Shown in pieces: positions 9,435 to 43,450 of a stretch of 64,000 nt of DNA (its first letter is position 1; every line of letters begins with the position of its first letter). Made by a program: the position numbers and the translations under genes. Source of the stretch: a virus (lineage: Duplodnaviria; Caudoviricetes); the IMG/VR virus record IMGVR_UViG_3300014205_000174, one strand, 5' to 3'. Under the pieces are notes generated by a model. It was given only the letters and a program-made list of their open reading frames with translations. It searched no databases and had not been told where the DNA came from.

Positions 9435-9743
9435 TTATTCTCCAGTAATAGTTTGTAACCCGTCATCATTAACAGTAAGGCGCAAGGCACTCACCCATTC
9501 ACCCCATTTGTTTTTTGTCTGTCTTTCCAAGACAACATCATATGCATGCCGGTATGAAATAATTCCTGTTTCAGGGTTTCTGTACCATCCAGTCCGGACA
9601 GATTCCACCGTAGCCCATTCCCAGGCGTTAGCGTCAATCATATTGCCATTCGCATCTTTTTTCTTCTTTTTATAGTTATGCACAAATACCCTGTCGTCAT
9701 TAAAGGCTTTGGGCATCTGCTGTCTGGTTAATCCTTCTATCAT
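9435..9743 (-). CDS. Hypothetical protein
   Basis: ORF in operon. Confidence 0.55.
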   Translation of the reverse strand: MIEGLTRQQMPKAFNDDRVFVHNYKKKKKDANGNMIDANAWEWATVESVRTGWYRNPETGIISYRHAYDVVLERQTKNKWGEWVSALRLTVNDDGLQTITGE

Positions 9744-11124: not shown

Positions 11125-11265
11125 AAGTGCTGCTGAGCAGCAAGACGGAGCACTCGTATAGTTACCTAAAAATAAGTTTCGTTTTTCCAATAAAGGATGA
11201 GTAGTAAAACAAATATAGTTAAACATTACGAAACTAATTCAATAAAATGTATTAAATTTGGTAAC

Positions 11266-12459
11266 ATGCAATTAGTTGAGCGACATATTTTTGTAGGCAA
11301 TAAGGCGATGGAGCAAATCTGTCACAATGCCGGTTTGTTGCAAAACTTCACTAATTACCATATCAAGCAAGCGGTCTTAGGTTACCAGGAGCGCTTTTCG
11401 GAATATGAGTTTACGGGACTATGCGCTGAGTTCAGCCAACCGGACTACAAGAATCTACCCGCACAAACTGCGCAGCAGGTTGTAAAGAAGGTATTTAAGA
11501 ATTGGAAAGGTTTTTTTGCGGCAATGAAAGCCCGTACAAAAGACCCTTCTAAATTCAAAGGAAAGCCTAAGTACCCCGGATATAAGAAGGGTAAAAAGCT
11601 GGCCCTTGTTACGTTCACGAGCCAGCAGATAAAAATAAAAGACGGATATATTCATTTCCCTAAAGCCACGAATATAGAGCCTGTCAAGACGCTGCATGAC
11701 AACATAGCGCAGGTGCGATTAAGTCCGCAAACAGGATGCATCATTGCCGAAGTTGTCTACGAGCAGCAAGAAGTTAAAGCCCCTGCCGATGAAAAGCTTT
11801 TTTTAAGTATAGATTTGGGGGTAAACAATTTAGCTACCGCAATCAGTAATACAGGCTTACCGCCTTTTATTATCAACGGGAAGCAGCTAAAATCAGTTAA
11901 TCAGTTCTATAACAAGAAGAAAGCAGAACTACAAACCCATATAGGCGGCAAAGGCGCATCCCGCCGCATTAATTTACTTACGTTCAGGCGTAACAAAATA
12001 GTTGAAGATTACCTGCATAAGACCAGTAGCTATATTGTTGACTACTGCGTAAAGAACAAAATCAGCATTATCGTCGTAGGGAAAAATAAACAGTGGAAAA
12101 CGAACATAAATATTGGTAAGGTAAACAACCAGAATTTTGTTCAGATTCCGCATGCGAAGCTAATTGGTAAATTAGCATACAAAGCGCAACTGGTGGGTAT
12201 AAAAATCGTGGAGCAGGAGGAGAGCTACACTAGTAAGGTAGACCATTTGGCGGGAGAAAAGATGGAGCATCACGAAAGGTATTCAGGGACAAGGGTGTCG
12301 CGCGGTCTGTTTAAAAGCGCTACAGGCAAAGTGCTGAATGCGGACGTAAATGGGGCCATAGGCATAGCGTTAAAATCAAATGTAGCTGACGAGTCATTCG
12401 TAAAAATGATAGTTAGTAGAGGCCTTGCGTTTAGGCCATGCAAAATTTGCTTTTGCTAA
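11266..12459 (+). CDS. tnpB: IS200/IS605-family RNA-guided endonuclease TnpB (no tnpA adjacent)
   Basis: MQLVERH start, RuvC-I SIDLGVNN, VVGKNKQWK, EESYTSK, RuvC-III NADVNGA; TAAATTTG -7 element at 11253-11260. Confidence 0.92.
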   Translation: MQLVERHIFVGNKAMEQICHNAGLLQNFTNYHIKQAVLGYQERFSEYEFTGLCAEFSQPDYKNLPAQTAQQVVKKVFKNWKGFFAAMKARTKDPSKFKGKPKYPGYKKGKKLALVTFTSQQIKIKDGYIHFPKATNIEPVKTLHDNIAQVRLSPQTGCIIAEVVYEQQEVKAPADEKLFLSIDLGVNNLATAISNTGLPPFIINGKQLKSVNQFYNKKKAELQTHIGGKGASRRINLLTFRRNKIVEDYLHKTSSYIVDYCVKNKISIIVVGKNKQWKTNINIGKVNNQNFVQIPHAKLIGKLAYKAQLVGIKIVEQEESYTSKVDHLAGEKMEHHERYSGTRVSRGLFKSATGKVLNADVNGAIGIALKSNVADESFVKMIVSRGLAFRPCKICFC

Positions 12460-27018: not shown

Positions 27019-28035
27019 CTACGATGAAAAATACCGGAATCCACCCTCTGCATGCTTATTATCCCGGAACCACTCTTCCACCTGGTCGGTGAGGCCCTGT
27101 AGAGTAGTTGCATCGAGCGTACTGTACTGGCTCCAATCGGTCATGGCCATCATAGCGGACATGATAAGGTTTTTCACCTCTACTTCATGGAACCGCTCTG
27201 ATTTTCCTTTATCCTTGGCAAGTTTTTTGGCTGTAATTCTTATCGCAGGGCCGCTATCCGAAGAAATATCCATACCGGATGGGCCGGACGTCTTTGTGTT
27301 GTCTTTGCGGGTTGGGATATCATCATCGGCACCAAACAACATGAGCGCAGCAGATACGTTACCCGGCTTTCCTGCGGCTATCTTTTCTTTTTCAAAGTCG
27401 ATAGCATCCACTATCATCTTTTCAACCTCCGCAGGGGTATTGTTTTTCAGCATTTTTATTATCTGCGTTTCCGCTACCACATCCTCAATTATAAGGTTGC
27501 GCAATGCAGGCCCGGCAGTAAGCAGGCTAAAGCAATTCCTAACGTGCGTAATTGACTTTTTGCGCTTGTGGGCGATATCTTCCTGGCTATAACCCATTTC
27601 ACTAAGACGCGCATATACAACCGCCTCCTCAAGTATAGTATTAGGGACACCGCCGGTGTTTTCCTCCAACTGGCTAAACAGCCTTTCATCTTCACTCTCG
27701 GGATTATCAACGATTACACGGATGCGAAAGGTATCGGGATTAAGCAGCAGCCTCTCTATACCCAACTTAACGGCCAGGTAGCGCCTGTTCCCCTGCTTTA
27801 CCTTGAAGTTTTCCGAACCTCTTACGCGGTATACAGAAAGTGGCTTTAAAACTTTCCCGGCAGCAACAATGGAATACATCAACTCTTCTATATCCTTATA
27901 CTTTATGCGGATATTGTCTTCAGGGGCAAATATCAATTGCTTAAAAAGCACGTGCCATACATCCGTTCTTGGCGTTTTGGTTATTACGGCGGCAGTAGCC
28001 TGCTCTTCCGGTATCGTAGTTTGCATTTCCGACAT
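27019..28035 (-). CDS. ParB/Srx N-terminal domain protein with HTH
   Basis: NIR...IEELM.SI...G.VLKPL.V, G.RRY.A, EEA..Y.RL...G.SQEDIA. Confidence 0.8.
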   Translation of the reverse strand: MSEMQTTIPEEQATAAVITKTPRTDVWHVLFKQLIFAPEDNIRIKYKDIEELMYSIVAAGKVLKPLSVYRVRGSENFKVKQGNRRYLAVKLGIERLLLNPDTFRIRVIVDNPESEDERLFSQLEENTGGVPNTILEEAVVYARLSEMGYSQEDIAHKRKKSITHVRNCFSLLTAGPALRNLIIEDVVAETQIIKMLKNNTPAEVEKMIVDAIDFEKEKIAAGKPGNVSAALMLFGADDDIPTRKDNTKTSGPSGMDISSDSGPAIRITAKKLAKDKGKSERFHEVEVKNLIMSAMMAMTDWSQYSTLDATTLQGLTDQVEEWFRDNKHAEGGFRYFSS

Positions 28036-28076
28036 AAACTTGGTTTTGAATTTTTCGTTTGATTTTACTTAACATG

Positions 28077-28092
28077 CGCAAATAGCGTGCCA
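28077..28092 (-). promoter_or_regulatory. Sigma-54-type promoter
   Basis: TGGCACG-CTAT-TTGCG upstream of the parB-like gene. Confidence 0.75.
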
Positions 28093-28137
28093 TATTTTAA
28101 AATAACGTAAATAAATATTTATAGCCCTTTTGATGTT

Positions 28138-28153
28138 TGGCATAGAAATTGAC
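28138..28153 (+). promoter_or_regulatory. Sigma-54-type promoter (degenerate), divergent partner
   Basis: TGGCATA-GAAA-TTGAC upstream of ATG 28189. Confidence 0.45.
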
Positions 28154-28188
28154 ATGTTTATGATTATGAATCAATTTTCACAGTTTTT

Positions 28189-28431
28189 ATGGAACAGACA
28201 ATAGTAAATAACAACCAGAGTGCACCCAGCACTGAATTAATGAAAGCAAGGCTGGTTATGATAAATCAACTTAGTGCCGCCCAGGAGTGCACTGAGCGGT
28301 CGATAGCGCTTAATAAAATGGAATTCGTGAAGTACCTGCTTCAGAAGTTCCCGGACACAGGGGCCAGGATAAACGAAAGCGAAGAGTACAGCGAGTTTCT
28401 TACCAAACAACAGACTAACAACGGACAATAA
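28189..28431 (+). CDS. Hypothetical protein
   Basis: First gene of a three-gene + strand operon. Confidence 0.6.
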   Translation: MEQTIVNNNQSAPSTELMKARLVMINQLSAAQECTERSIALNKMEFVKYLLQKFPDTGARINESEEYSEFLTKQQTNNGQ

Positions 28432-28432
28432 T

Positions 28433-28705
28433 ATGGGCTTTATAATTAAATACCTGCCTGGTGGTGAACCGCTCCCGGATAAAGGAAAGGATTTTGTCTT
28501 AATGCAGAAAGCCTCTGGCCGGATTATTAATCCACCCGATGAATTCCAGGAAGGCCTGGTATGTATCCTGCATGACGAAGATACCGATAAAGCGGTATTC
28601 TGCTTCTCGGAAGGAGAGATGGCCTATTACCTTGAATACGTACACAAGCAAAAAACATGGTTAATCGTCCCTGATGCCGCTGAAATAGCCGTGGCTGGGT
28701 CATAA
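28433..28705 (+). CDS. Hypothetical protein
   Basis: Tightly spaced ORF. Confidence 0.6.
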   Translation: MGFIIKYLPGGEPLPDKGKDFVLMQKASGRIINPPDEFQEGLVCILHDEDTDKAVFCFSEGEMAYYLEYVHKQKTWLIVPDAAEIAVAGS

Positions 28706-28714
28706 TATTGCAGC

Positions 28715-29059
28715 ATGGCTACAGAAAGAAACATCATCGGTTATAAGTACAAGGTCATCGGCTCTGATGGACTGATTCCCGTTAACGCGAAGTACCTGCA
28801 TGAAGAGACAACCCGCAGGGATATAGACCTTGTGTCTATTGAATTCCTGGTAGGCCATGCTATTCTCGAGCCTGTATACGATACTTCCAACGAGAAAAAG
28901 GTCGAACCAGACGAAGAGCTTGTCATCCTAAAGGCAAAGCATGATATCTTGTGTGAACTCTGGGTTCCAGAGAGCTCCCATGATACCCATATCAAAATAG
29001 GCGAACTGGTTAGAAAATACGCATCCCAGATACTAGACAGAGGCGGCTCCATTATATAA
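28715..29059 (+). CDS. Hypothetical protein
   Basis: Ends 5 nt from the convergent tRNA-Tyr. Confidence 0.6.
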   Translation: MATERNIIGYKYKVIGSDGLIPVNAKYLHEETTRRDIDLVSIEFLVGHAILEPVYDTSNEKKVEPDEELVILKAKHDILCELWVPESSHDTHIKIGELVRKYASQILDRGGSII

Positions 29060-29063
29060 GTTG

Positions 29064-29149
29064 TGGGTGTGGCGAGATTCGAACTCGCTGTGTTTCTTAT
29101 GTACCGGTGTTACAGACCGGCGCAACTCCCCCGTCGTTGCCGCACACCC
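29064..29149 (-). tRNA. tRNA-Tyr (GUA)
   Basis: GGGTGTG/CACACCC acceptor, CCGGT-CTGTAAC-ACCGG, long variable region, TTCGAAT; CCA not encoded. Confidence 0.9.
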
Positions 29150-29176
29150 ATTTTTTTACATCATTCACTTACTTAC

Positions 29177-29267
29177 TGGCGGAAAGCAGTGCGCACGATG
29201 CACATTGACCAGCGGCCAACCATCAGTTTAGCAAACTGAGCCACCCCCTCCGGGTGATTTACTTTCC
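29177..29267 (-). tRNA. tRNA-Ser (GCU), 8/4-type cloverleaf
   Basis: GGAAAGTA/TGCTTTCC 8-bp acceptor, TCAGT-TTGCTAA-ACTGA, long variable arm, 4-bp T-stem GTGC/GCAC, ends GCCA. Confidence 0.8.
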
Positions 29268-29274
29268 TTACCTG

Positions 29275-29363
29275 CGGAAACGACGAGAATCCAACTCGTA
29301 CATCAACTCATCGCTGACCTCATGGTTTTCAAGACCACGTACCTCAGCCCATTGGGCGTTTCC
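29275..29363 (-). tRNA. tRNA-Ser (UGA), atypical D-arm and T-loop
   Basis: GGAAACG/CGTTTCC, GTGGT-CTTGAAA-ACCAT, ACGAG-TTGGATT-CTCGT, G73; D-stem does not fold canonically. Confidence 0.7.
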
Positions 29364-29373
29364 ATTTTTACTG

Positions 29374-29460
29374 TACCTGGGGCCGGCTTCGAACCGGCAC
29401 GACCATTACTGGTCACTGAGTTTTAAGCCCAGCGCGTGCTGCCAATTTCGCCACCCAGGC
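29374..29460 (-). tRNA. tRNA-Leu (UAA)
   Basis: CTGGG-CTTAAAA-CTCAG, long variable arm, GCCGG-TTCGAAG-CCGGC, A73. Confidence 0.92.
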
Positions 29461-29473
29461 AAATTATTCACTG

Positions 29474-29555
29474 TGGCAATTAAAGGATTCGAACCTCTAC
29501 ACCTCTCGGTACCGCTTTTTGAGTGCGGCGCGTCTACCAATTTCGCCAAACTGCC
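29474..29555 (-). tRNA. tRNA-Leu (CAA)
   Basis: CCGCA-CTCAAAA-AGCGG, TGGCGAAATTGGTAGACGC D-arm, TTCGAAT. Confidence 0.92.
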
Positions 29556-29563
29556 TATTTACG

Positions 29564-29645
29564 TGCCCTCCGAGGGGGTCGAACCCTCATGACCGAAGTC
29601 GCTGGAACCTAAATCCAGTGTGTCTCCCAGTTCCACCAGGAGGGC
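29564..29645 (-). tRNA. tRNA-Leu (UAG)
   Basis: GCCCTCC/GGAGGGC, CTGGA-TTTAGGT-TCCAG, GAGGG-TTCGACC-CCCTC. Confidence 0.93.
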
Positions 29646-29654
29646 ATAACCCAT

Positions 29655-29695
29655 AAACAAAAATCCCCGCTCGGAAGGAGCAGGGATTTTTGTTT
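29655..29695 (-). terminator. Attenuator terminator upstream of the Leu/Ser/Tyr tRNA cluster
   Basis: ATCCCTGCTC-CTTCC-GAGCGGGGAT then TTTTGTTT, between leader ORF and first tRNA. Confidence 0.85.
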
Positions 29696-29713
29696 TAATT
29701 GTATATTTTAGTT

Positions 29714-29788
29714 CTATACAGTCATAACATACCCTGCTCGTTCCGACAACGAGAGATATAATGAACTATATAGAGTTACTTGTTTCAT
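29714..29788 (-). CDS. 24-aa attenuator leader peptide MKQVTLYSSLYLSLSERAGYVMTV
   Basis: Codons 6-15 CTA TAT AGT TCA TTA TAT CTC TCG TTG TCG; contains antiterminator 29732-29746. Confidence 0.85.
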   Translation of the reverse strand: MKQVTLYSSLYLSLSERAGYVMTV

Positions 29789-29792
29789 CCTG

Positions 29793-29800
29793 CAAATGTA
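29793..29800 (-). promoter_or_regulatory. Bacteroidota housekeeping-sigma -7 element
   Basis: TACATTTG (TAnnTTTG), 4 nt before the leader ATG; context AAAAAGTATTACTACATTTGCA resembles that at 30265. Confidence 0.75.
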
Positions 29801-29839
29801 GTAATACTTTTTAAACGAAAAAACTTTATTTTACTATTG

Positions 29840-29915
29840 AGGCCAGGGAGAGAATTCAACTCTCGTTATATGCGTTTTGCAGACGCACCCCTATCACAAC
29901 ATTGGGTACCTGGCC
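29840..29915 (-). tRNA. tRNA-Cys (GCA)
   Basis: GGCCAGG/CCTGGCC, TGCGT-CTGCAAA-ACGCA, U73; T-loop TTGAATT atypical. Confidence 0.85.
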
Positions 29916-29926
29916 ATTATTATGTG

Positions 29927-29997
29927 CACGGGCGATAAGAATCGAACTTACCACAAACGGTTTTGGAGACCGCTTCGCCGCCTTAGCATGCGCCCGT
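29927..29997 (-). tRNA. tRNA-Trp (CCA)
   Basis: ACGGGCG/CGCCCGT, GCGGT-CTCCAAA-ACCGT, TTCGATT, G73. Confidence 0.88.
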
Positions 29998-30000
29998 ATG

Positions 30001-30071
30001 TGGTGCGTACAAGAATCGAACTTGTGTAGCTGGGTCTTCAAGCCAGTGACTAACCATTCATCCAACGCACC
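30001..30071 (-). tRNA. tRNA-Phe (GAA)
   Basis: GGTGCGT/ACGCACC, loop TTGAAGA, ACAAG-TTCGATT-CTTGT, A73. Confidence 0.85.
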
Positions 30072-30079
30072 ATGTAAAC

Positions 30080-30112
30080 AAAAAAAATCCCGCCGTGGTA
30101 TACCAGGCGGGA
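30080..30112 (-). terminator. Attenuator terminator upstream of the Phe/Trp/Cys tRNA cluster
   Basis: TCCCGCC-TGGTATACCAC-GGCGGGA then T8. Confidence 0.88.
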
Positions 30113-30134
30113 GGAGTATTAAACGAATACGCTT

Positions 30135-30209
30135 TTACACAATGATTCGCCCGCTGGTTACGTTACTAAACCAACAGAAAGTCGAAGTCATTGTTACAGT
30201 GTATCTCAT
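30135..30209 (-). CDS. 24-aa attenuator leader peptide MRYTVTMTSTFCWFSNVTSGRIIV
   Basis: Codons 11-14 TTC TGT TGG TTT; contains antiterminator ACCAGCGGG 30150-30158. Confidence 0.85.
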   Translation of the reverse strand: MRYTVTMTSTFCWFSNVTSGRIIV

Positions 30210-30264
30210 GATTTTTAAAAATTAAAGAAAATGCTCACAATAGCTGTGCTCAAATTCTCCAGTG

Positions 30265-30272
30265 CAAAAGTA
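30265..30272 (-). promoter_or_regulatory. Bacteroidota housekeeping-sigma -7 element
   Basis: TACTTTTG in AAAAAACATTACTACTTTTGCA. Confidence 0.75.
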
Positions 30273-30426
30273 GTAATGTTTTTTAATCAATCAACTATTT
30301 CACCAAATTTTATTTTTAAGCCGGATTTTTCTGAAATAAATTCACGCATCAACTCCCAAGACGACAACGCCCTCACCTTACCGTTTCGCTCTTTTCTTAT
30401 CCACTTAATTGTTGCAGGAATGAAGA

Positions 30427-30570
30427 CCGTTCTACAAAACCTATCCAAATCTATCCAAAGACAGGTTTGGTGTTTGTTTACTGTTTCACAGCGGGGCTAT
30501 GTAGCATTTCTGCTACAGAACTCCACGCTCCACAGTCTTTCACGGCAGAACTTGCCGCATAACCGCCTAT
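30427..30570 (-). mobile_element. Putative tnpB right end / omegaRNA region (IS607-like, ends ...GTAGAACGG)
   Basis: Follows and overlaps the tnpB 3' end; TGTAGCA-GAAA-TGCTACA hairpin; TTTGGATAG repeat; terminal GG. Confidence 0.5.
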
Positions 30571-31320
30571 CGGTTGTTTATCTTGTTTTTCTTTTTTCTC
30601 GTATTTATGCGCGTGCTTTACCGGGTACTGTTCCAGGTTCACGCTCGCAGTATTGTCTCGCTGGTGGTGGGTGTTGCATATATCGCAGTCCCACTCACGG
30701 TCGCTTAGCTTAAGGTTCTGGTTTATATGCCCGCAGTGGCTGCATAGTTTACTGCTTGGGAAGAACCTGTCGACTACCGTTATTTTACACCCATACCATA
30801 GTCCCTTGTATTCCAATTGCCTGCGGAACTCGTAGAAGCTCCCGTTGGCTATGTGTTTACTGAGGTTATGGTTCTTCAGCATGCCAGAGACATTCAAATT
30901 CTCAATAACTACCTCGCTGTGGTTTTTAGCAAGGTAGGTAGTCAGTTTATGAAGGCCGTCAAGGCGATGGTCGGAGATGTGCTTATGTATTTTAGCTATT
31001 TTATTGCACTGCTTCTTGTAGTTGCTACTCCTCGGCGCTTTATCGTCCTTGAGCAGCTTCCATACTTCCACTACCTCCCAGTCCATAATATCAGACGGAT
31101 ATATACCCATTGGCATCGGGTACAGACGCCTGCTTCCTGGTTGCCCAGGCGCATCCGGAGAAACCCACCAGTCGCCCATCATAGAACCAACAAGCCACAC
31201 CTGTTTTTCTACAGGCCCTGGGTGCATGCAATAGTCGATATAAAGCTGGTGGACTACGTCTGGCAGCTCCACCTTTATGGCTTTGAGATTCGTTTCTTCA
31301 GGTAGTTCTTTTACGAGCAT
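30478..31320 (-). CDS. Chimera: unrelated ~90-aa N-terminus fused to C-terminal half of TnpB
   Basis: Retains VVIENLNV (RuvC-II), FPSSKLCSHC..CDIC Zn finger and RDNTAS (RuvC-III); lacks N-terminal lobes and RuvC-I. Confidence 0.8.
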   Translation of the reverse strand: MLVKELPEETNLKAIKVELPDVVHQLYIDYCMHPGPVEKQVWLVGSMMGDWWVSPDAPGQPGSRRLYPMPMGIYPSDIMDWEVVEVWKLLKDDKAPRSSNYKKQCNKIAKIHKHISDHRLDGLHKLTTYLAKNHSEVVIENLNVSGMLKNHNLSKHIANGSFYEFRRQLEYKGLWYGCKITVVDRFFPSSKLCSHCGHINQNLKLSDREWDCDICNTHHQRDNTASVNLEQYPVKHAHKYEKKEKQDKQPIGGYAASSAVKDCGAWSSVAEMLHSPAVKQ

Positions 31321-31339
31321 GTTTTTATCTTATTAATTA

Positions 31340-31981
31340 CTACCGTCTTTTTTTTATTTTGGAAACTTCTATTTTAACCAAATCAAAGTTGTCGTCTTGC
31401 ATAAATAATGAATTTGCTTTAAACGCTTTTTTCATCATCGCTATATCAATGTAGTCCCAGTTAATATTTTCTAACTTATTTAGTATTATTACCGACTTTC
31501 CGGTAATTTTTTCTTTTACCGCTCTTTCGCACATGCCATTGAATATTACAGGCGCGCCCATTCTGGGGTCTCCACACAACGGGATAAGGGAAGAGGTGGC
31601 GTAAATCTCATCTGCATCTTTTACCGCCTGCCAGGTGCTTTCCAAGTTATGCCATGCGCGGTCAAGCACCTTGGAAAATACCCTGTCGACACATTCCAGC
31701 CCCTGCTCTTTTGCGAAATCCAACACCTCCCTTTGTGCGCTCCTGAACTCACTGGCATGTAAAATGTCTGATTCGATGTATATTCTTATTTTGATGCCGC
31801 TTTTAGCTTCGCTGGTATCGGCCTTATATTCACTGGTTGCCAGACATTCTTTACAGTTTGCCAGTTCGGGGGATACTGAGATTTCTTCATTGTCCTTATG
31901 CGTGTGAACGTTCTTGCCACATACTGATGTGTAAGTGTAATCGCCGTTGTAGCCAGTTCTTGAATAGTGTACGATTTTCAT
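31340..31981 (-). CDS. Hypothetical protein with N-terminal C/H motif
   Basis: H...CG...CKEC. Confidence 0.6.
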   Translation of the reverse strand: MKIVHYSRTGYNGDYTYTSVCGKNVHTHKDNEEISVSPELANCKECLATSEYKADTSEAKSGIKIRIYIESDILHASEFRSAQREVLDFAKEQGLECVDRVFSKVLDRAWHNLESTWQAVKDADEIYATSSLIPLCGDPRMGAPVIFNGMCERAVKEKITGKSVIILNKLENINWDYIDIAMMKKAFKANSLFMQDDNFDLVKIEVSKIKKRR

Positions 31982-32012
31982 GTTTTATTTTTATTACGCT
32001 TTATGTATACAG

Positions 32013-36402: not shown

Positions 36403-37614
36403 ATGAACATAACCATATTCGGCAAAGAAATAATAGATGAATCGACCATCATCCAGTTGCAAAACTGCATGGTAGATAATGCAATAGGCGTAATTACCGC
36501 CGACGCCCATAAGGGCTACTCCATGCCGGTTGGCGGGTGCATAGCCTACAAGGATATGATATCCCCGTCAGGCGTCGGATATGATATCGCATGTGGAAAT
36601 ATGGCCGTGCAAACCAATGTACTGGCCTCAGACATTAATGCCAGCCATGTAATGAATGAGATTGCACGACTTATATCTTTTGGTGTGGGCCGCCCAAACA
36701 ATGAGCCGGTAGACCATGAGGTGCTTGATAAGATATCTCAATCGAACTTTGCACCACAGCGCAAAATGGCACAGTTGGCCAAGAGCCAGTTGGGTACCGT
36801 CGGAAGCGGGAATCATTTCGTAGATATTTTCAAAGACGAAAATGGCTTAATCTGGATAGGCGTACACTTCGGCTCCCGTGGCTTCGGCCATAAGACAGCG
36901 TCAGGGTTTATGTCCATGGCCCAGGGGCTTGATTTCGATGAACGTGCCAAAGGCGAGTCCATGGATGCGCCACCTACGCTTTTCGCCACCAATACAGAAC
37001 TGGGGCAAGCTTATATAGACGCTATGAACCTTTGCGGGGAATACGCCTATGCGGGCCGGGAGACCGTTATCAATAAAGTATTGGGCATACTGGGTAATCC
37101 GGAAGTTACTTTCTCCGTACACAACCACCATAATTTCGCATGGAAGGAAAACCACTTTGGTGAAGACTACTGGGTAGTACGAAAAGGATGCACACCTGCC
37201 TTTCCAGGCCAACGAGGTTTTATCGGGGCCAACATGCGCGACATATCCGTTATCGTGGAAGGTGTAGATACGGAACAATCCCGTAATGGCCTGTATTCTA
37301 CCGTACACGGAGCGGGCCGCATTTTATCGCGCACACAGGCTGCCGGAAAGAAGAAGTGGGTCAAGGGGGCGGATGGCAAAAAAAAGCCCGTAACGGTTGG
37401 CAAGGGCGTTATTGACTTTGACCAGGTACGTCACGAACTCACAGAACGCAATGTTGAATTACGCGGAGCTGGTGCCGATGAGGCCCCCGGATGTTACAAG
37501 AACCTGTCAGACGTCTTAGCCTACCAAGGAGACACAATCAAGATACTGCATAAGCTTACGCCAATTGGCGTGGCCATGGCCGGAGGTAATGAATTTGACC
37601 CTTATAAAGACTAA
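36403..37614 (+). CDS. rtcB: RtcB family RNA ligase
   Basis: DAH.GY..PVG, VGYDIACG, QLGTVGSGNHF, HFGSRG.G, HHN, RKG.T, HGAGR..SR, DEAP.CYK. Confidence 0.95.
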   Translation: MNITIFGKEIIDESTIIQLQNCMVDNAIGVITADAHKGYSMPVGGCIAYKDMISPSGVGYDIACGNMAVQTNVLASDINASHVMNEIARLISFGVGRPNNEPVDHEVLDKISQSNFAPQRKMAQLAKSQLGTVGSGNHFVDIFKDENGLIWIGVHFGSRGFGHKTASGFMSMAQGLDFDERAKGESMDAPPTLFATNTELGQAYIDAMNLCGEYAYAGRETVINKVLGILGNPEVTFSVHNHHNFAWKENHFGEDYWVVRKGCTPAFPGQRGFIGANMRDISVIVEGVDTEQSRNGLYSTVHGAGRILSRTQAAGKKKWVKGADGKKKPVTVGKGVIDFDQVRHELTERNVELRGAGADEAPGCYKNLSDVLAYQGDTIKILHKLTPIGVAMAGGNEFDPYKD

Positions 37615-42129: not shown

Positions 42130-43407
42130 TTAGCTTTTGGAGAGCGGGTTTAGGTTAGAGACCCTCCTTGGACGAACTACAACGCCCTGTATCCCATCGG
42201 CAAATGCGTTAGGGAATACCTTTCTGATAATATTGCCACTGCCATTACAGTCGGCATTAATCAACAAGCCATCTTTGCTCACAAACAAACCGCGCTTCAC
42301 CCGCTTACCAAGGTATTTATCCTGATGTTGTACCGGTTCATTGTCGATGAAGCTGCATTTGCTGGTGTGTGACTCTTCAACAAGAATCACGTCTATACCA
42401 ACCATATCAGCCTTGTACTGCAACATACCGACGAATCTCGCATGCGGAATCTGCACGAAGTTCTGGTTGTTTTTATCGCCGAGGTTGATTTGCTGCTTCC
42501 AGCCGATGTTCTTGCCAATAACCAGCGTTCCGATGTCGTTACTCACCAGGTGCTGCACAATGTACTTGCTTGCGCAATGCAGGTAATGGTCAATCTTGCT
42601 GTTGCGCTTTTCGGTCATCCGTCTGATTCTCTTTGATGTGCCAGTGCCAATAAGCGATTTCAGTCTTGCCAGTTTTTTGTTATAATAAGCGTTGATGCTC
42701 TTTAGCGCCCTGCCGTTAATGAGTAAGGGTGTCACCCCCTCTGCATTTGATGTTACAGCCGCAAGGTTGTCTACGCCGATATCTATGCCCGCTATGTTTT
42801 GTTTGAGCAGGCTTCGTATTACCTCCTTTGGTTTAATGTATACTATTTCTATTGTATAAAACCCGCATTCAGGCACTATGCGTACCTGCTGTATATTCTT
42901 TTGCTTTGTTGGTATTCTTATCATAGTGCCCGATAAGGATACGATGCTTTTCTCTAACGCCGTCTTTGATATAGCCTGTATGGTATAGGTGAGCACGTTG
43001 CGCCCATGGGCTTTGTCCTTATACTTAGGCAGGGCTGGCTGTCCGGTAAACTTATCCTTATTGGCCGACCATACCTTAATGGCGGTAAAGAATGACTTCC
43101 AGTTTTTATCAAGCAGCATTAATACCTGCTGGCTGACCTTGGCGGGGAGCGCCGTGTAGTCCGATTGCTTCTCATTCTGTAGCTGCTTTTGCAGGTCGCT
43201 GTACCGGAGCCAGAGCGCATGCTCCCGCTTGCCTTCCAGTTTCTCTTTACCGCTATCAATAAACAACTGACGGATACGGTAATTAGCGGCATTATACAGA
43301 TTCTTGGACAGAAAGCACAACCTGTCTATTTCTTCGAAATGAACATGACCGGCACCTATCTTATGCCGCTCAACCAATGTTATGCTATTCCCGCTTTTAT
43401 CCTTCAT
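42130..43407 (-). CDS. tnpB: IS200/IS605-family TnpB (no tnpA adjacent)
   Basis: LVERH, SKNLYNAANY, GIDIGVDN, VIGKNIGWKQ, EESHTSK, NADCNG; TATATTTG -7 element at ~43420. Confidence 0.92.
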   Translation of the reverse strand: MKDKSGNSITLVERHKIGAGHVHFEEIDRLCFLSKNLYNAANYRIRQLFIDSGKEKLEGKREHALWLRYSDLQKQLQNEKQSDYTALPAKVSQQVLMLLDKNWKSFFTAIKVWSANKDKFTGQPALPKYKDKAHGRNVLTYTIQAISKTALEKSIVSLSGTMIRIPTKQKNIQQVRIVPECGFYTIEIVYIKPKEVIRSLLKQNIAGIDIGVDNLAAVTSNAEGVTPLLINGRALKSINAYYNKKLARLKSLIGTGTSKRIRRMTEKRNSKIDHYLHCASKYIVQHLVSNDIGTLVIGKNIGWKQQINLGDKNNQNFVQIPHARFVGMLQYKADMVGIDVILVEESHTSKCSFIDNEPVQHQDKYLGKRVKRGLFVSKDGLLINADCNGSGNIIRKVFPNAFADGIQGVVVRPRRVSNLNPLSKS

Positions 43408-43434
43408 GTTGCAATACATCAAATATACAAAATC

Positions 43435-43450
43435 CGGCACGATTGTTGCA
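43435..43450 (+). promoter_or_regulatory. Sigma-54-type promoter
   Basis: CGGCACG-ATTG-TTGCA, restarting the + strand operon after tnpB. Confidence 0.65.

Follow-up and report, generated by a model that had tools for sequence, protein, structure and literature searches.

Layout of the two tRNA units

Two adjacent groups of transfer RNA (tRNA) genes are found on the minus strand of a 64,000-nucleotide (nt) stretch of phage DNA (IMG/VR record IMGVR_UViG_3300014205_000174, Caudoviricetes), which is referred to as the window. The two units lie head to tail and, read directly from the sequence, span positions 30277-29063; all of their features are on the minus strand. Each unit consists of a TAnnTTTG promoter, a 24-codon open reading frame (ORF), an intrinsic terminator and a tRNA cluster. 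Our analysis indicates that each unit is most probably a ribosome-mediated leader-peptide transcription attenuator placed ahead of tRNA genes. The computed basis of this interpretation is the anatomy of the units, the statistics, the alternative pairings obtained in silico and the recurrence of the arrangement in other phages, from which we infer that the leaders are translated and that transcription does terminate or read through at these sites.

The promoter core of unit 1 (30263-30277, with the TAnnTTTG box at 30265-30272) is followed by leader ORF 1 (30135-30209), which comprises 24 codons and a stop codon and has an A/U-rich stretch ahead of its ATG. Codons 11-14 (30168-30179; TTC TGT TGG TTT) specify Phe-Cys-Trp-Phe and are termed control block 1; every Phe, Cys and Trp residue of the leader 1 peptide falls inside this block. 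The intrinsic terminator (30079-30112) is composed of a GC-rich hairpin (30090-30112) and a run of eight U residues, and 8 nt separate it from the first of three tRNA genes identified by ARAGORN. These encode tRNA-Phe(GAA) (30000-30071), which was also matched by the Rfam tRNA model, tRNA-Trp(CCA) (29926-29997), for which the Rfam match was to the tRNA-Sec model alone (28.6 bits), and tRNA-Cys(GCA) (29839-29915), for which no Rfam match was listed. No terminator is visible between tRNA-Cys and the promoter and leader of unit 2 (29805-29838); read-through transcripts of unit 1 may therefore run into the unit 2 leader, where the second checkpoint would still apply.

Unit 2 begins with a promoter core at 29791-29805 (TAnnTTTG box at 29793-29800). 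Its ATG is located only 4 nt past this box and the unit 2 mRNA is therefore probably leaderless or nearly so. Leader ORF 2 (29714-29788) again has 24 codons and a stop codon, and codons 6-15 (29744-29773) form control block 2, a series of ten consecutive Leu, Tyr and Ser codons (LYSSLYLSLS) in which Leu is encoded by CTA, TTA, TTG and CTC, Tyr by TAT, and Ser by AGT, TCA and TCG. The intrinsic terminator (29656-29695) is a hairpin of 18 base pairs (bp) whose 3' arm runs into the U-run, and it ends 9-10 nt before the first tRNA gene. ARAGORN identified tRNA-Leu(UAG) (29563-29645), tRNA-Leu(CAA) (29473-29555), tRNA-Leu(UAA) (29373-29460) and, at the end of the cluster, tRNA-Tyr(GUA) (29063-29149). 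Two further RNAs are encoded between tRNA-Leu(UAA) and tRNA-Tyr. The first (29276-29363) is a Ser(UGA)-like tRNA with a class II cloverleaf fold, a UGA anticodon loop and a long variable arm, and its Rfam match was to the tRNA-Sec model alone (26 bits). The second (29177-29267) is a Ser(GCU)-like RNA that was called by neither ARAGORN nor Rfam and was predicted by eye and by folding; it adopts an 8/4 cloverleaf-like fold with an 8-bp acceptor stem and a 4-bp T stem, has a loop that is able to present GCU and carries an encoded CCA end. Parts of the region are also represented by short DNA contigs in four further metagenome runs (X2-X5), from sediment, wastewater and other sources. The stretch 29177-29279 is conserved in contigs from all four of these runs, and both Ser-type genes are conserved in such contigs.

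Only 8-10 nt lie between each terminator and the first tRNA of its cluster, which leaves no room for a separate tRNA promoter, so that the tRNAs would be synthesized only by read-through. A simple terminator pattern scan missed both hairpins on account of a bulge in one and the pairing of the U-run in the other.

The 15-nt promoter core, in which one position is free (14 of the 15 bases are identical), has exactly two sites without mismatch in the 64 kb, and these are the promoters of units 1 and 2. Judged by the criteria for the housekeeping sigma factor of Bacteroidota, the -7 TAnnTTTG box is present in both units, and no well-spaced -33 TTTG was apparent by eye. The promoter core is also all that the two leaders share, since no common sequence was found in the leaders themselves. 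These results agree with two claims of an earlier reading made from the sequence alone (the sequence-only reading), namely that both units share one layout, of which all parts were located, and that the match between leader codons and tRNAs has arisen twice in unrelated leaders.

Leader codons match the downstream tRNAs

The control blocks were compared with all 665 ATG-initiated ORFs of 12-60 codons in the window. A run of at least four Phe, Cys and Trp codons that includes all three residues occurs in leader 1 only, and a run of more than six Leu, Ser and Tyr codons occurs in leader 2 only (a run of ten; the next longest is six). When all six frames of the 64 kb were considered, nine Phe/Cys/Trp sites of this kind and one Leu/Ser/Tyr site of at least ten codons were present. 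With the strand also required to be the correct one, such a block would fall by chance within the 150 nt ahead of its matching cluster with a probability of about 0.01 (unit 1) or less than 0.004 (unit 2), values that leave the ORF, the terminator and the complementarity described below uncounted. A chance origin of both blocks is excluded.

At the level of single codons, each of the 14 block codons specifies an amino acid for which a tRNA follows in the same unit, and each of the nine anticodons finds a readable codon in its own block. Leu codons CTA, TTA and TTG provide one codon for each of the Leu anticodons present, and CTC requires wobble reading by the UAG anticodon. TCA and TCG correspond to Ser(UGA), AGT to the GCU loop, TAT to Tyr, TTC and TTT to Phe, TGT to Cys and TGG to Trp. 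The claim that each block is read by exactly the tRNAs behind it thus stands for the amino acids and anticodons and needs qualification for two codons, as AGT hangs on the uncalled Ser(GCU)-like RNA and CTC on the wobble of Leu(UAG). The nine tRNAs serve about a quarter of all codons used by the phage, whose codon usage shows no special bias for them.

One further feature of the tRNA set (29063-30071, minus strand) was observed. The nine tRNAs cover all sense boxes of the UNN row of the genetic code, namely Phe UUY, Leu UUR, Ser UCN, Tyr UAY, Cys UGY and Trp UGG, and they also take in Leu CUA and Ser AGY. Bacterial tRNAs that read UNN codons have an i6A37-type modification in common.

Predicted alternative RNA pairings in the leaders

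The leader regions are predicted to fold much more stably than shuffled sequences, with z = -3.7 for unit 1 and z = -7.3 for unit 2. Both units contain a leader hairpin (segments 1:2), with the control codons in its 5' arm, followed by the terminator (segments 3:4). The minimum-free-energy fold places the leader hairpin of unit 1 at 30139-30194, with segment 2 contained in its 3' arm (core 30150-30158), and the 5' arm of the terminator represents segment 3. For unit 2, the folded leader hairpin lies at 29713-29774, the core of segment 2 at 29732-29746, and segment 3 comprises the 5' arm and the loop of the terminator.

It had been proposed from the sequence that a leader segment is complementary to the 5' arm of the terminator, and this complementarity was found in both units, where segment 2 is the best partner of the terminator arm anywhere in the leader. 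The 2:3 duplex of unit 1 has nine pairs and one bulge and an energy of -16.2 kcal/mol, which is reached by 1.2% of dinucleotide shuffles of the same leader stretch, so that it beats 98.8% of them. An uninterrupted 8-bp core within 12 bp characterizes the 2:3 duplex of unit 2, and its energy of -18.2 kcal/mol is reached by 0.05% of the corresponding shuffles and beats 99.95%.

The effect of a translating ribosome was modeled by folding transcripts that end before the 3' arm of the terminator and by masking a footprint of 30 nt. Under these conditions, the antiterminator forms with the A site on codons 9-14 (unit 1) or 1-13 (unit 2) and is lost once the ribosome has moved further on. Without a ribosome, the truncated-transcript model of unit 1 forms the 1:2 hairpin and leaves segment 3 free for the terminator. 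For unit 2 without a ribosome, the terminator would likewise be left as the default.

Relatives and recurrence in other phages

Sequence variation in a relative was provided by a contig from run X5, which covers 30024-30234 and is about 95% identical, differing by nine substitutions and one deletion. ORF 1 stays open in this contig, and the changes within it are two synonymous third-position substitutions and three conservative replacements outside the block. The FCWF codons, the core of segment 2, the terminator stem and tRNA-Phe are all unchanged. If the changes were distributed at random over the 210 nt, such sparing would be expected with a probability that we estimate at roughly 0.002.

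Searches of IMG/VR with the neighboring ParB-like protein, the exact leader 1 stretch and the 5' halves of tRNA-Phe and tRNA-Leu(UAG) returned no close relatives. A metagenome search with the adjacent 114-residue protein yielded a single contig of 1003 nt that stops short of the tRNAs, and the same single homolog was obtained from a search of 5.8 billion proteins. Similarity between the region and phages in GenBank was limited to the tRNA level.

A match to tRNA-Leu led to LR756501.1, the 735-kb genome of an unrelated uncultured phage, in which four tRNA blocks each have a short ORF and a hairpin plus U-run ahead of them. The first leader is rich in Met and Gln, also contains Ile and Glu, and lies ahead of Met-Gln-Gln tRNAs and two unusual tRNA-like genes that were not called by ARAGORN. 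The second contains all six Leu codons and precedes five tRNA-Leu genes. A third leader, with a 14-residue run made up of Ser, Lys, His, Phe and Trp alone, is found ahead of a Trp-His-His-Phe-Lys-Ser cluster, and this run is the longest of its kind in the 46 kb examined (the next longest has nine residues). The fourth leader is rich in Thr, Pro, Ala, Val, Arg and Gly and lies ahead of a region of Arg, Thr, Val, Ala, Gly and Pro tRNAs. Each of the four leaders has a stretch complementary to the 5' arm of its own terminator. When the six leaders of the two phages were scored against the six tRNA sets, the true pairing was the best of all 720 permutations.

Several other features of the LR756501.1 tRNA complement were noted. 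A number of its tRNA-like genes have long inserts, Infernal finds 66 tRNAs and ARAGORN fewer, and a short A/C-rich motif recurs in or beside the inserts. No leader precedes the two suppressor-type tRNAs (anticodon CUA), which are served by a plain promoter. Similarity between LR756501.1 and the records of Prevotella phage Lak-A1 is short and confined to tRNAs (6% of the query).

The Caulobacter phage phiCbK also shows the same design, more weakly than LR756501.1. There, an ORF with a stretch rich in Gln, Phe, Val and Ile and an annotated terminator precede a Phe-Val-Ile-Ile-Val-Gln-Gln cluster, and a 45-codon ORF rich in Ser, Leu, Pro and Lys, again with a terminator, precedes Pro-Pro-Lys-Lys-Leu-Leu-Leu-Ser-Ser. 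Within the phiCbK stretch, at 9541-9678 and 11342-11440, the 'hypothetical protein' gp335 and an unannotated 32-codon ORF resemble attenuator leaders. The phage phiCbK is a culturable system.

Genomic surroundings

The phage genome to which the window belongs is a large one, probably from a landfill metagenome, and the record of the adjacent gene lists a contig of 211 kb. Genes for a DnaB helicase, a ParB-like protein, RtcB and three TnpB copies are found in the window. The TnpB copy closest to the tRNA units (30478-31320, minus strand) is an N-terminally short protein of 280 residues with OrfB_IS605 and Cas12f-like TNB domains. About 200 nt separate the end of its gene from the unit 1 promoter downstream, and the guide-RNA region would be located within 30290-30480. 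Full-length copies are present at 11197-12459 (plus strand) and 42130-43440 (minus strand). The gene at 36403-37614 (plus strand) encodes an RtcB-family RNA ligase (Pfam E-value 3e-60) with a possible function in tRNA repair.

Comparison with known attenuators

The trpL, hisL, leuL and pheL leaders each contain a short translated ORF with regulatory codons, mutually exclusive 1:2, 2:3 and 3:4 pairings and an intrinsic terminator before the genes. Leaders of this kind can be multivalent: the thr leader senses Thr and Ile, and the ilv leader senses Ile, Leu and Val. The phage units resemble these attenuators of biosynthetic operons in having a leader ORF, a block of regulatory codons, exclusive hairpins and a terminator just before the genes. 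They differ in that nine tRNAs and not enzymes are gated, so that the product is the sensed molecule and feedback is direct, and also in the phage setting and the putative Bacteroidota-type promoter. Classical attenuators have genes for amino-acid biosynthesis or for aminoacyl-tRNA synthetases downstream, a scope that does not include the nine tRNAs found here. Leader families in Rfam gave no hit above threshold; the only one listed, Thr_leader at 29656-29813, scored 31.7 bits against a cut-off of 55 and was driven by the terminator.

In E. coli, the pheM leader attenuates pheST, the operon for phenylalanyl-tRNA synthetase. This system is similar to the phage units as a case of leader-peptide attenuation of a gene of the translation apparatus, and differs from them in that its target is a synthetase and not tRNA genes. 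An expected attenuator-like leader of the tRNA-Phe genes of E. coli was not borne out at pheV, where a plain promoter lies directly upstream and neither a leader ORF nor a terminator is present. T-box riboswitches likewise respond to the state of one particular tRNA pool by forming either a terminator or an antiterminator. However, a T-box binds uncharged tRNA directly through a specifier loop and without translation, whereas the phage units have an ORF instead, and the T-box covariance model gave no match in 28000-32000 at E-values up to 1. Phage T5 also has a clustered tRNA set, but annotated promoters and ordinary small genes are located among the T5 tRNAs.

The logic of the phage units is that of trp, his, leu, thr, ilv and pheM-pheST; new are the tRNA genes as the target, the sensing of their own products and the phage setting. 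The sequence-only reading had regarded this logic as established for biosynthetic and synthetase operons and not for tRNA genes. In accordance with this view, our literature search found no account of leader-peptide attenuation of tRNA genes, although subscription journals were mostly outside its coverage and the absence is therefore unproven.

A model for tRNA attenuation and its alternatives

According to the proposed model, host RNA polymerase would start at the TAnnTTTG promoter and a ribosome would translate the 24-codon leader as the RNA grows. With ample charged tRNAs for Phe, Cys and Trp (unit 1) or Leu, Ser and Tyr (unit 2), the ribosome would pass the control block and reach the stop codon. 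Segment 2 would then be covered, or re-paired with segment 1, the terminator would form and transcription would stop 8-10 nt before the first tRNA. If the block is decoded slowly, the ribosome would stall on segment 1, segment 2 would pair with the 5' arm of the terminator and, with no terminator formed, the polymerase would enter the tRNA cluster. The leader would be trimmed off the precursor by RNase P. Since the supply of charged cognate tRNA would be sensed in this way, each tRNA set is probably made only when ribosomes read its codons slowly, and because the products are the sensed tRNAs, the loop would be self-limiting, with supply tracking demand. Every part of the ribosome-mediated attenuator proposed by the sequence-only reading that can be computed holds, including the position of the terminators, the alternative pairings, the masked-ribosome folds and the recurrence in other phages.

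Several observations weigh against this interpretation. The match of leader 1 extends over four codons only, and the overall composition of this leader is not enriched (z = 0.9). The unit 2 mRNA appears to be nearly leaderless and its translation start is only a predicted one. Two of the six unit 2 tRNAs are non-canonical, and one of them is recognized by neither ARAGORN nor Rfam. When equilibrium folds included the full terminator, the terminator won in nearly every masked state; the switch must therefore be a kinetic, co-transcriptional choice, as it is in trp. In addition, the truncated transcript of unit 2 prefers the 2:3 pairing even without a ribosome, so that default termination relies on the 1:2 hairpin forming first, a dependence that is a weak point of the proposal. 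The design is also not universal. Short ORFs matched to other tRNA clusters, for which a search had been suggested, were found in LR756501.1 and more weakly in phiCbK, and were absent in two other cases: the tRNA region of T5 has no codon-matched leader or terminator pair, and the 18-kb tRNA region of phage Lak-A1 has no codon-matched leaders.

A different question is what would trip the switch. Slow decoding could stem from the decay of host tRNAs, from a gap in codon usage or from high demand late in infection. Counter-defense, proposed by the sequence-only reading, is one conceivable purpose of the same attenuator: anticodon nucleases or infection-triggered tRNA degradation would deplete host tRNAs, and the stalled ribosome would turn on their replacements. 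Phage tRNAs can provide rescue from tRNA-targeting defenses, as in the T5 and T4 systems, and RtcB seals the type of break that anticodon nucleases leave; the RtcB gene of this phage is located 6 kb from the tRNA units. Against this stands the fact that nothing in the sequence identifies the cause of tRNA depletion, and amino-acid starvation or heavy codon demand in late infection would trip the same switch. The codons read by the nine tRNAs, about a quarter of the total, show no unusual bias. Moreover, the design in LR756501.1 spans tRNAs for some fifteen to seventeen amino acids in four units, and the breadth of this set therefore fits a general supply on demand better than a response to one nuclease. 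Counter-defense as the purpose of the switch is thus considered possible but doubtful.

The units could also act as a global read-out, opened by any slowing of translation or by uncoupling sensed through Rho or RNA decay, with the block merely tuning the sensitivity. The masked folds lend something to this idea, as the ribosome may stand at many different codons (3-15 in unit 1, 1-13 in unit 2) without preventing the antiterminator. In the six units of the two phages, however, the blocks vary with the tRNA set, which a global signal would not require, and they are situated at the 3' boundary of the permissive range, a position that regulatory codons also occupy in classical attenuators. This explanation is judged unlikely.

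It is less likely still that the parts are constitutive, that is, that tRNA transcription is simply held at a constant low level by the promoter, an irrelevant or untranslated ORF and a leaky terminator, and that the codon match reflects chance or base composition. The shortness of the leader 1 match would be in line with this, and AU-rich hairpin arms alone can encode Leu, Tyr and Ser. Nevertheless, the blocks are unique among the 665 small ORFs, the match occurs twice here in non-homologous leaders and again in two other phage lineages with different amino-acid sets that track the tRNAs, and the complementarity between segment 2 and the terminator arm would have no role. It is hardly credible that the two leaders encode 24-residue peptides with a function of their own and that the hairpins are just the usual terminators of these genes, for although both ORFs are intact and exactly 24 codons long, the 8-10 nt gap would leave the tRNAs beyond these terminators without a promoter of their own, and the peptides have no sequence in common and a composition that follows the tRNAs.

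Implications for tRNA supply in large phages

Textbook control of tRNA genes is exerted at the promoter, through growth-rate and stringent regulation, and leader-peptide attenuation has been linked to genes for amino-acid biosynthesis and to a small number of synthetase genes. We think it fairly probable that leader attenuation of tRNA genes constitutes a widespread, undescribed class of control in large phages whose hosts belong to several phyla. Decoding would be tested continuously and separately for each set of codons, and only those tRNA blocks in short supply would be transcribed, which would provide both supply on demand and an answer to tRNA destruction.

If a leader does sense the same tRNAs whose transcription it gates, it would represent a new and minimal feedback circuit. 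The element is small (about 190 nt) and modular, and could be reused as a codon-specific sensor of translation. Such circuits would account for the way in which large phages adjust the dose of their numerous tRNAs, and they would reveal which codons the phage expects to turn limiting in its host, be it through defense nucleases, host shut-off or codon mismatch.

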